A DNA stretch of 64,000 nucleotides from Escherichia coli. Lineage in GTDB: Bacteria; Pseudomonadota; Gammaproteobacteria; Enterobacterales; Enterobacteriaceae. The notes under the pieces were generated by a model that saw only the letters and a list, made by a program, of their open reading frames with translations, did not search any database and was not told where the DNA came from. The position numbers and the translations under genes were made by a program. Position 1 is the stretch's first letter; each line of letters opens with the position of its first letter. The stretch lies in assembly GCF_044324875.1 (NCBI RefSeq), contig NZ_CP172185.1. One strand, given 5' to 3'. This document shows, in pieces, positions 1-7,533 of the stretch.

Positions 1-1
1 T

Positions 2-262
2 TTCGGCATTCTGGGGATCAGCGGCATCGATAGCGACGGCTCGTTGCTGGAATTCGATTACCACGAAGTTCGCACCAAACGCGCTATTATTGAGAACTCG
101 CGCCACGTTATGCTGGTTGTCGATCACTCGAAATTTGGCCGTAATGCGATGGTCAATATGGGGAGCATCAGCATGGTTGATGCTGTCTACACCGACGCCC
201 CGCCGCCAGTAAGCGTCATGCAGGTGCTGACGGACCATCATATTCAACTGGAGCTGTGCTGA
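2..262 (+). CDS. glpR: DeoR-family repressor of the glycerol-3-phosphate regulon, C-terminal fragment (5' end outside window)
   Basis: Open frame entering from window edge, ending ...VLTDHHIQLELC with stop at 260-262; recognised as GlpR C-terminus; adjacent to rtcR as in E. coli. Confidence 0.7.
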   Translation, partial: FGILGISGIDSDGSLLEFDYHEVRTKRAIIENSRHVMLVVDHSKFGRNAMVNMGSISMVDAVYTDAPPPVSVMQVLTDHHIQLELC

Positions 263-1842
263 TCCTGCAAGGCTTCCCACGTCAGACCAAAACGCGCCAG
301 GTATTTGCGTAGCCGATCCGCGTCATTGACGCTGGCTTTGCCCTGGCGCGAAACGTCAAAAAGCTGGCGTCCGGCAGCAGAAAGTGACTTTGCCTGGCGG
401 CAGATGGCTATTACGTGTTCCAGTTGCAGTCGATCAAAGAGGTCGATGTTTTCTGCCTCAGCGCCCAGCAACGCCGGAAGCGCGGAGGGGCGACTCTCCT
501 GCCAGTTATAGCGCAGACGGTTTATCTCATCTTCTACGGTTTCCAGAGTAATGCGCCCGCTATCGGCAAAGGTTGCCATCCGCGTGACGCTGGCAGAAAG
601 TTCTCGAAAGTTACCGCGCCATGTTGCCTGGGGAGATGTCGCAAAAGCCAGCCAGGCGCGCCGTGCTTCGGTGTTCAAACGCACGCTGTCGCCAGTAAGC
701 GCGGCGTGGCGCTCCACTTCATAATCCAGGTTCGGTTCGATATCTTCCTGGCGCTGGCGCAGCCCCGGCAGGGTGAAGGTCCAGAGATTAATGCGTGCGT
801 ACAGGTCTTCGCGAAATTTGCCTTCGGCAACCAGCTGGCGCAAATCGCGCACCGTTCCGGCGATCAGCTGAAAATCACTGCTCACCTGGCGATCGCTGCC
901 AAATGGGTAAAAGGTTTTCTCTTCAATGGCTTTCAGCAACATCGCCTGTTCGTCTGCGCCCAGTTCGCCAATCTCATCAAGAAATAACATCCCGCCGTTG
1001 GCGCTGCGTAATAATCCTTCCCGCGACTCCCGCGCCCCGGTAAACGCGCCTTTCACATGACCAAACAGCGTCGACATGGCGGTATCGCCACGCAGGGTGG
1101 CGCAGTTCACTTCCACAAACGCGCCGCTAAACTGATGCCGCGCCTGTTTCAATTCAAAGATGCGTCGCGCCAGAAATGACTTACCCGCCCCGGTCGGGCC
1201 GTTGAGCAGGATCGGTGCGCGGGATTTAATCGCCACTTTTTCGATCTGCTCAATCATGCGGTTGAAGTGGGGGTTACGCGTGGCAATGCCGGATTTGAGG
1301 AAATCGAGGGTTTGCTGGCGTTCCTCGGCAAAGCGGCTGGCGATGGCGTTATAACGGCTTAAATCGAGATCGATAATCGTCACTTCACCTGCGCCGCGCG
1401 GTTGTTCTTTTTTGCGCGGTGGTGAAGATTGTATCAACCGGGCGGGTAGATAACGCGCTTCTGCCAGCAGAAACCAGCAAATCTGCGCGACGTGGGTACC
1501 GGTGGTGATGTGAATTAAATAGTCTTCTTTTTCTGGCTGGAACGCGTAACCACGGGCGAAATCATGCAGGCAGGCGTAGACCTCTTCGAAATCCCACGGG
1601 TTATGCAGTTCTATCTCAACGCCCACCACTTCTGTTTCTGGCGAAACGCTGGCGATATCGCGTTTAAGCGTTTCAAATAGCGAGCGCGAGCGGGCGTCAT
1701 GCAATAATTCCAGTCGATCGATGACCAACGATTCTTGCTGGCATAAACAAAGCGTCGGACGCCATTTCGACCAGCGCTGACTGCCGCGCCCGGCATAATC
1801 CAGCACCGTTCCGACAAAACCAAAAGCCACTGTTTTACGCAT
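244..1842 (-). CDS. rtcR: sigma54-dependent transcriptional activator RtcR
   Basis: 532-aa ORF; AAA+ core with Walker A GPTGAGKS and GAFTGA sigma54-contact motif; divergent from rtcBA. Confidence 0.9.
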   Translation of the reverse strand: MRKTVAFGFVGTVLDYAGRGSQRWSKWRPTLCLCQQESLVIDRLELLHDARSRSLFETLKRDIASVSPETEVVGVEIELHNPWDFEEVYACLHDFARGYAFQPEKEDYLIHITTGTHVAQICWFLLAEARYLPARLIQSSPPRKKEQPRGAGEVTIIDLDLSRYNAIASRFAEERQQTLDFLKSGIATRNPHFNRMIEQIEKVAIKSRAPILLNGPTGAGKSFLARRIFELKQARHQFSGAFVEVNCATLRGDTAMSTLFGHVKGAFTGARESREGLLRSANGGMLFLDEIGELGADEQAMLLKAIEEKTFYPFGSDRQVSSDFQLIAGTVRDLRQLVAEGKFREDLYARINLWTFTLPGLRQRQEDIEPNLDYEVERHAALTGDSVRLNTEARRAWLAFATSPQATWRGNFRELSASVTRMATFADSGRITLETVEDEINRLRYNWQESRPSALPALLGAEAENIDLFDRLQLEHVIAICRQAKSLSAAGRQLFDVSRQGKASVNDADRLRKYLARFGLTWEALQDQHSSS

Positions 1843-1976
1843 CTCTAGATATCCTTATAAAAGACGATATTTCATTATCGGTAAATTGGCTTTGCGGGAA
1901 ATCTCCGTTTACGGACGTAAAGATTTAATCTATTAAAAACAATAAATTAAAAAATTAAGCTGCTTATTTAATTTTC

Positions 1977-1992
1977 TGGCACGACGGTTGCA
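1977..1992 (+). promoter_or_regulatory. sigma54 (-24/-12) promoter of rtcBA
   Basis: TGGCAC-N5-TTGCA exact match to the sigma54 consensus about 40 bp upstream of the rtcB ATG. Confidence 0.7.
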
Positions 1993-2030
1993 ATTATCAG
2001 GACAGCAAACAACGAAAAGAGAAAAACAAA

Positions 2031-3257
2031 ATGAATTACGAATTACTGACCACTGAAAATGCCCCGGTAAAAATGTGGACCAAAGGCGTGCCGGTAGAGG
2101 CCGATGCGCGTCAGCAACTTATTAATACGGCGAAGATGCCGTTTATTTTCAAACATATTGCGGTAATGCCTGATGTACACCTGGGTAAAGGTTCCACCAT
2201 TGGTAGCGTGATCCCAACCAAAGGGGCGATTATTCCGGCGGCGGTGGGCGTGGATATCGGTTGTGGAATGAACGCGCTGCGTACCGCGTTAACGGCGGCA
2301 GACCTGCCGGAAAACCTGGCGGAGCTGCGTCAGGCAATTGAAACTGCCGTGCCGCACGGGCGTACTACCGGGCGTTGTAAACGTGATAAAGGCGCATGGG
2401 AAAACCCGCCTGTTAACGTCGATGCGAAATGGGCTGAGCTTGAAGCCGGTTATCAGTGGTTAACGCAAAAATATCCCCGTTTCCTTAACACTAACAACTA
2501 TAAACACCTGGGAACGCTGGGAACGGGTAACCACTTTATTGAAATCTGCCTTGATGAGTCGGACCAGGTGTGGATTATGCTGCACTCCGGTTCACGCGGA
2601 ATCGGTAATGCCATCGGAACTTACTTTATCGATCTGGCGCAAAAAGAGATGCAGGAAACGCTTGAAACATTGCCGTCGCGTGATCTGGCGTACTTTATGG
2701 AAGGTACGGAATACTTTGATGATTACCTGAAAGCCGTGGCCTGGGCGCAGCTTTTTGCCAGCCTTAACCGCGATGCGATGATGGAAAACGTGGTAACGGC
2801 GTTGCAGAGCATTACGCAGAAAACGGTCAGACAGCCACAAACGCTGGCGATGGAAGAGATCAACTGTCACCACAACTATGTGCAAAAAGAACAGCACTTT
2901 GGTGAAGAGATCTACGTGACGCGTAAAGGCGCGGTGTCTGCGCGTGCTGGTCAATATGGAATTATTCCCGGTTCGATGGGGGCGAAGAGCTTTATCGTCC
3001 GTGGGCTGGGAAATGAAGAGTCGTTCTGTTCGTGCAGCCACGGTGCCGGGCGGGTTATGAGCCGTACTAAAGCGAAAAAAATGTTCAGCGTGGAAGATCA
3101 AATTCGTGCCACCGCGCATGTGGAATGCCGTAAAGATGCCGAAGTGATCGACGAAATCCCGATGGCGTATAAAGATATTGATGCGGTGATGGCGGCACAA
3201 AGCGATCTGGTGGAAGTTATCTATACCCTGCGTCAGGTGGTGTGCGTAAAAGGATAA
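2031..3257 (+). CDS. rtcB: RNA-splicing ligase RtcB
   Basis: 408-aa ORF recognised as RtcB family; immediately followed by rtcA. Confidence 0.95.
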   Translation: MNYELLTTENAPVKMWTKGVPVEADARQQLINTAKMPFIFKHIAVMPDVHLGKGSTIGSVIPTKGAIIPAAVGVDIGCGMNALRTALTAADLPENLAELRQAIETAVPHGRTTGRCKRDKGAWENPPVNVDAKWAELEAGYQWLTQKYPRFLNTNNYKHLGTLGTGNHFIEICLDESDQVWIMLHSGSRGIGNAIGTYFIDLAQKEMQETLETLPSRDLAYFMEGTEYFDDYLKAVAWAQLFASLNRDAMMENVVTALQSITQKTVRQPQTLAMEEINCHHNYVQKEQHFGEEIYVTRKGAVSARAGQYGIIPGSMGAKSFIVRGLGNEESFCSCSHGAGRVMSRTKAKKMFSVEDQIRATAHVECRKDAEVIDEIPMAYKDIDAVMAAQSDLVEVIYTLRQVVCVKG

Positions 3258-4277
<1,020 letters not shown>

Positions 4278-4290
4278 TATAAAGATGTAA

Positions 4291-4314
4291 GCCGGATCCG
4301 ACGTATTATCCGGC
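4291..4314. terminator. hairpin between convergent rtcA and malT (candidate bidirectional terminator)
   Basis: gccggat-N10-atccggc inverted repeat in the 42-bp gap between two convergent stops. Confidence 0.35.
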
Positions 4315-4319
4315 TAAAC

Positions 4320-7031
<2,712 letters not shown>

Positions 7032-7533
7032 TCACTTCACTGTGGAAAATGAGGAAATATTATTTTTTTTGCGCTTCGTAATTAATGGTTATAAGGTCGG
7101 CCAGAAACCTTTCTAATGCAAGCGATGACGTTTTTTTATGTGTCTGAATTTGCACTCTGTCACAATTCCAAATCTTTATTAATGACTCACCTAAAACGAC
7201 GCTGATACAGCGTGAATGCTGGGTTGTACGGTATTTCCCTTATGTTCATCAGATTCATTTAAGCAAGGGTTTCTTCTTCATTCCTGATGAAAGTGCTATC
7301 TAAAAAGATGATCTTAATAAATCTATTAAGAATGAGATGGAGCACACTGGATATTTTACTTATGAAACTGTTTCACTCCTTTACTTAATTTATAGAGTTA
7401 CCTTCCGCTTTTTGAAAATACGCAACGGCCATTTTTTGCACTTAGATACAGATTTTCTGCGCTGTATGGCATTGATTTGCTGCTAATCCTGTGGTTTGCA
7501 CTAGCTTTAAGTGGTCGAGATCACATTTCCTTG

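Follow-up and report, generated by a model that had tools for sequence, protein, structure and literature searches.

The 64 kb stretch of Escherichia coli DNA analysed here, referred to below as the window, carries the two genes of an RNA repair operon, rtcB and rtcA, and, divergently oriented from them, the gene for their sigma-54-dependent activator, rtcR. The gene order is glpR-rtcR / rtcB-rtcA-malT, and positions 1-4400 are 100% identical to E. coli strain 135, whose RefSeq annotation names a glpR-family regulator, rtcR, rtcB, rtcA and malT over this region. The promoter, the activator and the operon are already known, having reportedly been described since 1998 by Genschik et al., and are found here in a non-K-12 strain. 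All the features considered are collected in Table 1.

Table 1. Genes and control elements of the rtc locus, in window coordinates.
Feature	Position	Strand	Remarks
rtcR, sigma-54 activator, 532 aa	244-1842	-	CARF-type RtcR domain, AAA+ domain, C-terminal helix-turn-helix
Conserved block TAGATATCCTTATAAAAGACGATATTTCATTATCG	1846-1880		Candidate RtcR enhancer; overlaps the rtcR ribosome-binding region
Probable IHF site AAACAATAAATTA	1937-1949 (-66 to -54)	+	One mismatch to WATCAANNNNTTR; 40 nt before TGGCAC
Sigma-54 -24/-12 promoter core TGGCACGACGGTTGCA	1977-1992	+	Sole exact match in the window
Inferred transcription start C2003 (+1)	2003	+	Published prediction and ApC/ATP priming
rtcB leader	2004-2030	+	Conserved CAACGAAA at 2010-2017; weak Shine-Dalgarno-like AAGAG at 2017-2021
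rtcB, RNA ligase, 408 aa, first gene of the operon	2031-3257	+	Pfam PF01139, 8e-134; RefSeq annotation
rtcA, RNA 3'-terminal phosphate cyclase	3258-4277	+	Pfam PF01137, 1.3e-78
Hairpin AGCCGGAT-N10-ATCCGGCT	4290-4315		Read from the sequence, between convergent rtcA and malT

From the perspective of its domains, RtcR combines a regulatory RtcR/CARF domain (Pfam PF06956, residues 2-185, 1.3e-85) with a sigma-54 activation domain (Sigma54_activat, PF00158, 5.5e-51). The Walker A motif GPTGAGKS occupies residues 215-222, Walker B residues 285-290, and the GAFTGA motif residues 265-270, encoded at 1033-1050 on the minus strand. Both this motif and the complete layout of activator, sigma-54 promoter and RNA repair operon had been proposed in an earlier, sequence-only reading of the window; the motif is present as stated, and the layout holds in full, with rtcR on the minus strand, rtcB and rtcA on the plus strand and their identities confirmed by Pfam. 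Within the operon, the rtcB stop codon and the rtcA start abut at the junction GGATAA/ATGATG, which places the rtcA ATG at 3258 or 3261, the second of these being the start used in the K-12 annotation. The hairpin downstream of rtcA may, tentatively, mark the end of the operon; the consensus terminator scan made no call at 4290-4315.

Conserved elements of the rtcR-rtcB spacer

The -24/-12 consensus TGGCAC-N5-TTGCA has a single exact match on the two strands of the window, TGGCACGACGGTTGCA, at the position given in the sequence-only reading, which the motif scan thus bears out. Its GG and GC doublets fall at 1978-1979 and 1990-1991, respectively, within the fixed spacing TGGCAC-N5-TTGC, and the TTGCA element spans 1988-1992. 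A longer form of the sigma-54 core consensus is YTGGCACGrNNNTTGCW, and the site agrees with this as well; the five bases further upstream (TTTTC) agree with the consensus at the last position only. The core is intergenic and on the plus strand; 38 nt separate its end from the rtcB ATG (2031), and it lies 134 nt from the divergent rtcR start.

The chance level of the motif was estimated from shuffles of the window that preserve dinucleotides. Exact matches arise in these at a mean of 0.13 per window, with at least one match in 13 of 100 shuffles, while an exact match on the right strand within the 188-nt spacer has, by our own arithmetic, a chance expectation of about 2e-4. Since no match with exactly one mismatch occurs in the 64 kb window, and the total with up to two mismatches (27, of which 26 have two) is at the chance level of 28.4 expected, the exact site alone stands above the chance background.

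The motif recurs well beyond E. coli. A survey of RtcR loci taking one genome per species yielded 28 loci, 26 of them encoding a near-full-length RtcR relative, and ranged from Escherichia species, through Gamma- and Betaproteobacteria, to Verrucomicrobia and Desulfobacterota (four phyla). Of the 26 loci, 21 carry a -24/-12-type motif upstream of rtcR and on the strand opposite to it, counted in relatives as TGGCA(C/T)-N7-nGC when it matched no fewer than 8 of the 11 consensus bases; its distance from the rtcR start codon, measured in 15 lineages, ranges over 121-167 nt. The genes that follow the motif differ by taxon and include rtcB-rtcA, rtcA together with a long ORF outside the Pfam scan, or rsr (encoding Ro60) with YrlA Y RNAs and then rtcB. 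When the first long downstream ORF was scanned in ten loci, it encoded RtcB, RtcA, Ro60 or a Band_7/SPFH protein in nine, and gave no family match in the other. The Band_7/SPFH protein precedes rtcB in three loci, and is itself preceded by tRNA-like genes in two.

At closer range, an alignment of 14 spacer sequences from Escherichia, Klebsiella, Intestinirhabdus and Superficieibacter reveals just two conserved blocks, between which the sequence is scrambled among genera. The first is the promoter block, TCTGGCACG-nn-GGTTGCAAT, at 1975-1994, in which TCTGGCACG-nn-rGTTGCAA is invariant in all 14 sequences (r is G in 13 and A in Superficieibacter) and the base that follows is T in 13 rows and A in K. 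oxytoca. The second is TAGATATCCTTATAAAAGACGATATTTCATTATCG, against the rtcR start. The sequence-only reading had delimited the control region as 1900-2031, a span that does include the promoter core but misses part of the region, as this second block lies outside it.

Candidate sites for RtcR and IHF

The block adjoining rtcR contains the imperfect dyad GATAT-N4-TTATC at 1866-1879, which in Intestinirhabdus and Superficieibacter becomes a perfect GATAA-N4-TTATC, and a further GATA/TATC at 1848-1853. Among 15 lineages, 23 GATAA/TTATC half-sites fall in the 65 nt adjoining rtcR versus four in the remaining spacers, a number reached by none of 2000 shuffles in a test that ignores shared ancestry. 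The GATA/TATC elements are also spaced by about 10 bp, at -142, -132, -122 and -112 in one Pseudomonas and at -129/-127, -111 and -101 in the window. On the protein side, the C-terminus of RtcR follows the pattern LSxAGRxLFxxSRxxKxxxNDADRLRKYL, which is kept across phyla, and such a conserved helix-turn-helix fits a conserved half-site. These comparisons suggest that the 1846-1880 block probably holds the RtcR enhancer, with the dyad at about -130 as the leading candidate.

A more specific proposal can be made, to which we give slightly less than an even chance. It holds that the enhancer consists of GATAA/TTATC half-sites set about one helical turn apart against the rtcR start (1848-1879, about -155 to -124), that it is conserved from Enterobacteriaceae to Verrucomicrobia and Desulfobacterota, and that RtcR bound there also represses rtcR. 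Repression would follow from the overlap of the half-sites with the rtcR ribosome-binding region and a possible -10 element. The latter stems from a relaxed scan, which returned a weak rtcR promoter candidate composed of a -10-like GATAAT at 1879-1874 on the minus strand and a poor -35, TTTCCC; its assignment as the rtcR -10 is tentative.

This same overlap supplies other possible causes for the conservation of the block. It might be kept for the promoter, leader and ribosome-binding site of rtcR, the enhancer lying elsewhere, for instance at the TTTACG-GA-CGTAAA palindrome (1908-1921). The block does adjoin the rtcR start codon, positions 1851-1856 read on the minus strand as a good Shine-Dalgarno sequence, AAGGAT, and the -10-like GATAAT falls within the block, while the palindrome has perfect 6-bp arms and a centre about 88 nt before C2003. 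Such an explanation is nevertheless the less likely one. The GATAA/TTATC half-sites recur beside rtcR in distant phyla, with a phasing of about 10 bp, despite differing ribosome-binding and promoter sequences, and the strongly conserved helix-turn-helix of RtcR suits them. The right arm of the palindrome, in turn, is already lost within Escherichia, being absent from E. albertii, E. whittamii and the cryptic clade strain Escherichia sp. MOD1-EC7003, and nothing resembling the palindrome exists in Klebsiella, Intestinirhabdus or Superficieibacter. It was consequently rejected as the main enhancer candidate, and the direct repeat TTTACG... (1834/1908) was dropped together with it. Moreover, an enhancer and rtcR signals may coexist in one block.

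Between the block proposed here for RtcR and the promoter lies an AT-rich spacer (1922-1975), which encloses the candidate site for IHF. WATCAANNNNTTR is present without mismatch in Iodobacter, Accumulibacter and three Pseudomonas, where it precedes TGGCAC by 41-42 nt, and in Superficieibacter, where the distance is 30 nt; the Escherichia version, at 40 nt, has one mismatch. As single-mismatch matches are easily found in a region so rich in AT, the one in the window is not decisive, and the comparison is no more than suggestive of IHF binding at 1937-1949.

Regarding earlier knowledge of these sites, a 2016 review listed the enhancer sequence of RtcR as not known (PMC4987338), and a broader literature search returned nothing relevant on an RtcR binding motif. 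The rtc IHF site and UAS are named in a 2022 study, the accessible text of which gives no sequence for either (PMC9650030). The proposed enhancer motif, a candidate derived from comparative analysis, is the only part of this work that goes beyond the accessible literature. The comparative footprint suggests where RtcR and IHF may bind, which could aid the design of rtc reporters and studies of RNA-damage signalling.

Transcription from the rtcBA promoter

Published experiments bear directly on the promoter core, as the same sequence has been studied in K-12. The K-12 17-mer CTGGCACGACGGTTGCA is the sigma-54 ChIP-seq site OS35, assigned to rtcB with a fold-above-threshold score of 17 and carrying an experimentally confirmed flag in EcoCyc (PMC4591121). 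The dependence of rtcBA expression on RtcR and sigma-54 is established (PMC5175333, PMC9650030, PMC3844500), and RtcR-dependent induction occurs in response to RNA damage signals (PMC5175333, PMC7790460, PMC9650030), the signal for RtcR being, according to the literature, tRNA fragments with 2',3'-cyclic phosphate ends. A fragment of 175 nt upstream of rtcB suffices for RtcR-dependent reporter expression (PMC5175333); it corresponds to 1856-2030 of the window and takes in the 1866-1879 dyad. In Salmonella, sigma-54 binds the counterpart TGGCACGCTGGTTGCAAT, which lies ahead of rsr-yrlBA-rtcBA, and is required for its activity; a constitutive activator induces the operon 71-fold (PMC3844500). 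Together with OS35, the published dependence on RtcR and sigma-54 supports the control of rtcBA by RtcR that had been suggested from the sequence.

Two publications allow the transcription start to be located. Bonocora et al. (PMC4591121) predicted a start 19 nt downstream of the centre of the motif, with 28 nt from there to rtcB, which, converted to the window, leads from a centre at 1984 to C2003 (2031 - 2003 = 28). In the work of Kotta-Loizou et al. (PMC9650030), ApC served as the -1/+1 primer on the native promoter and ATP as the label, a combination compatible with A2002-C2003-A2004. The prediction and the priming both point to C2003, thereby setting the start 12 nt downstream of the C in the GC doublet and in agreement with the -12 element at 1988-1992, on which the sequence-only reading had made its proposal depend. 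Transcription would accordingly begin at about C2003, giving a leader of 28 nt. An element of this leader, CAACGRAA (2010-2017), is kept in four enterobacterial genera. No Rfam family matched positions 1-7200 at E <= 1, and a leader RNA element or riboswitch was discarded on these grounds.

It may be asked how much of rtcBA expression passes through this promoter. Although its core matches the consensus, the native rtcBA promoter was reported as very weak in vitro, its -24/-12 region having been exchanged by the authors for that of nifH, and certain inducing conditions raise rtcBA without RtcR, possibly via other promoters (PMC9650030). The weak Shine-Dalgarno-like sequence of rtcB points the same way. 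A real but weak sigma-54 promoter, with much of the expression arising from RtcR-independent promoters or changes in mRNA stability, is nonetheless improbable. A scan of 1700-2200 detected no sigma-70-like promoter on either strand, so that a sigma-70 promoter for rtcB was dropped; the reporter with only 175 nt upstream of rtcB needs RtcR (PMC5175333); the Salmonella operon is induced 71-fold by a constitutive activator (PMC3844500); and the strong conservation of the core argues that this is the main control point. A fortuitous match, or a site that recruits sigma-54 polymerase without being the rtcBA promoter, could appeal to the 13 shuffles with at least one match and to the many sigma-54 sites of unknown function, chiefly intragenic, reported by Bonocora et al. 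(PMC4591121), and has a negligible probability for a site that is unique, intergenic, correctly oriented 38 nt before rtcB, invariant in four enterobacterial genera amid a scrambled spacer, repeated opposite rtcR in four phyla and accompanied by published RtcR- and sigma-54-dependent expression.

The core at 1977-1992 is thus almost certainly the known promoter from which sigma-54 and RtcR drive the RNA-repair operon rtcBA of E. coli. For the control of rtcBA the promoter itself brings nothing new, the site having already been mapped by ChIP-seq. Its value here is that of a clean positive control, in which sequence alone was enough to recognise correctly a real sigma-54 promoter, one with experimental support, together with its activator.

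Proposed mechanism and related systems

These elements can be assembled into a scheme. The present analysis contributes the promoter motif with its uniqueness and conservation, the identities of the genes and the motifs of RtcR; the literature supplies the occupancy by sigma-54, the dependence on RtcR, the start site and the signal, and we infer the exact enhancer and IHF positions. The sigma-54 RNA polymerase would settle on the GG and GC doublets as a closed, inactive complex. RtcR, encoded divergently at 134 nt, would bind an enhancer in the part of the spacer nearest to rtcR, for which the 1866-1879 dyad is the likeliest candidate, and bending of the AT-rich DNA, either by IHF at 1937-1949 or intrinsically, would enable it to reach the polymerase. 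In the resting state, the N-terminal CARF domain is expected to hold the AAA+ domain inactive; binding of the RNA damage ligand to CARF would release this restraint, upon which RtcR would oligomerise and hydrolyse ATP, and its GAFTGA loop would open the promoter complex. Transcription from about C2003 would then produce the leader, rtcB and the translationally abutting rtcA.

Among known systems, the closest is the promoter rtcBp of E. coli K-12 with its RtcR (Genschik et al. 1998; Engl et al. 2016; Bonocora et al. 2015), which represents the same locus in another strain, with the same gene order glpR-rtcR / rtcB-rtcA-malT. The whole 4.4 kb locus is about 95% identical to that of K-12. Between MG1655 and the window, the spacer is identical from 1944 to the rtcB start, including CTGGCACGACGGTTGCA, and shows six small differences, all upstream of 1944, namely one 1-nt indel adjoining the rtcR start and one in the AT-rich tract, plus four substitutions. 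These spare the promoter core, the GATAT-N4-TTATC dyad and the candidate IHF core, except for an A in place of G at 1943, which is an N position of the IHF consensus.

The rsr promoter of Salmonella Typhimurium, which drives rsr-yrlBA-rtcBA, is likewise arranged divergently from RtcR, and its core, TGGCACGCTGGTTGCAAT, is nearly identical to that of the window, TGGCACGACGGTTGCAAT. The two differ in what follows the promoter, as rsr (Ro60) and two Y RNAs are interposed before rtcBA in Salmonella, whereas rtcB comes directly in the window. The Salmonella type of layout is also present in Intestinirhabdus and Superficieibacter.

Finally, the pspF/pspABCDE system of E. coli, controlled by PspF, IHF and sigma-54, offers a parallel in overall architecture, as it too combines a divergently encoded activator with an enhancer lying upstream, DNA bending by IHF and a -24/-12 promoter. 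A parallel with psp has also been drawn for feedback by the operon's own products (PMC9650030). The activators differ in their regulation: PspF is devoid of a regulatory N-terminal domain and is restrained by PspA, while RtcR has a CARF domain. PspF sites overlap the promoter of pspF itself, and the sites proposed here for RtcR would similarly overlap that of rtcR.

Sequence diversity and loss of the rtc locus

From the perspective of its conservation, the rtc chromosomal locus is unusually diverse for E. coli: positions 1-4400 of the window share only about 95% identity with K-12 across 4.4 kb (96.8% in the rtcR-rtcB spacer), and more than half of the genomes fall within the 90-95% identity band. 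Additionally, the spacer has no match in about 570 of the 5426 complete E. coli genomes searched. Strain GN03590 is one example of these spacer-less genomes, in which about 3.2 kb are deleted between glpR and malT, and the sole remnants left between these two genes in such examples are pseudogene stubs of rtcR and rtcA. Genomes carrying this deletion lack the entire regulated rtc system, including its promoter. A different disruption is found in strain LB858871, where two IS1 copies flank a split rtcB; as the homology to the window starts at position 1979, within the -24 element, IS1 has severed the promoter from its upstream region.

Features of the rtc locus and of the loci compared with it (L handles denote loci of other genomes, in their own coordinates)
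Feature	Position	Strand	Basis or remark
~3.2-kb rtc deletion	window 244-4277; L031 1744-2530		genome comparison
IS1-disrupted rtcB locus, LB858871	L030 5129-7936		corresponds to the window from 1979 on
Hairpin, 8-bp stem, AGCCGGAT-N10-ATCCGGCT	window 4290-4315		inside rtcA-malT gap
tRNA-like genes	L009 2065-2210; L008 1781-1853	- (both)	Rfam, ARAGORN
Leader compared across genera	window 1993-2030; L005, L006, L024 upstream of rtcR		

Small elements upstream of the promoter, at the rtcA start and in the rtcA-malT gap

A small perfect palindrome, TTTACG-GA-CGTAAA (1908-1921), is centred about 88 nt upstream of the inferred transcription start C2003, and a second copy of TTTACG lies across the rtcR start codon (1834-1839). 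The palindrome is kept in E. coli; in the spacer alignment, its right arm is absent from E. albertii, E. whittamii and the cryptic-clade Escherichia sp. MOD1-EC7003. Within the operon, two neighbouring ATGs for rtcA (3258 and 3261) directly follow the rtcB stop codon (window 3255-3263), and the K-12 RefSeq annotation uses the second, giving a protein of 338 rather than 339 aa. Convergent rtcA and malT are separated by a 42-nt gap, whose hairpin may act as a bidirectional transcription terminator; a consensus terminator scan did not call it.

RNA-related genes behind the promoter in other bacteria

Two of the compared loci, those of Pseudomonas sp. GD03944 and Candidatus Accumulibacter, carry tRNA-like genes immediately 3' of the sigma-54 promoter, followed by a gene for a Band_7/SPFH protein and then by rtcB. 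Rfam scores these genes as tRNAs at 60 and 51 bits; ARAGORN identifies one tRNA-Met (CAT) and one tRNA with an odd anticodon loop. Finally, Intestinirhabdus and Superficieibacter share the promoter of the window and have a homologous leader, behind which lie rsr (encoding Ro60), two or three YrlA Y RNAs and then rtcB. In K. oxytoca, a short rsr-like start (MANLLQFRS...) is all that remains of rsr before rtcB. This arrangement in relatives, together with the K. oxytoca stub, suggests that rsr-yrlBA was deleted from the Escherichia lineage and that the leader was retained.
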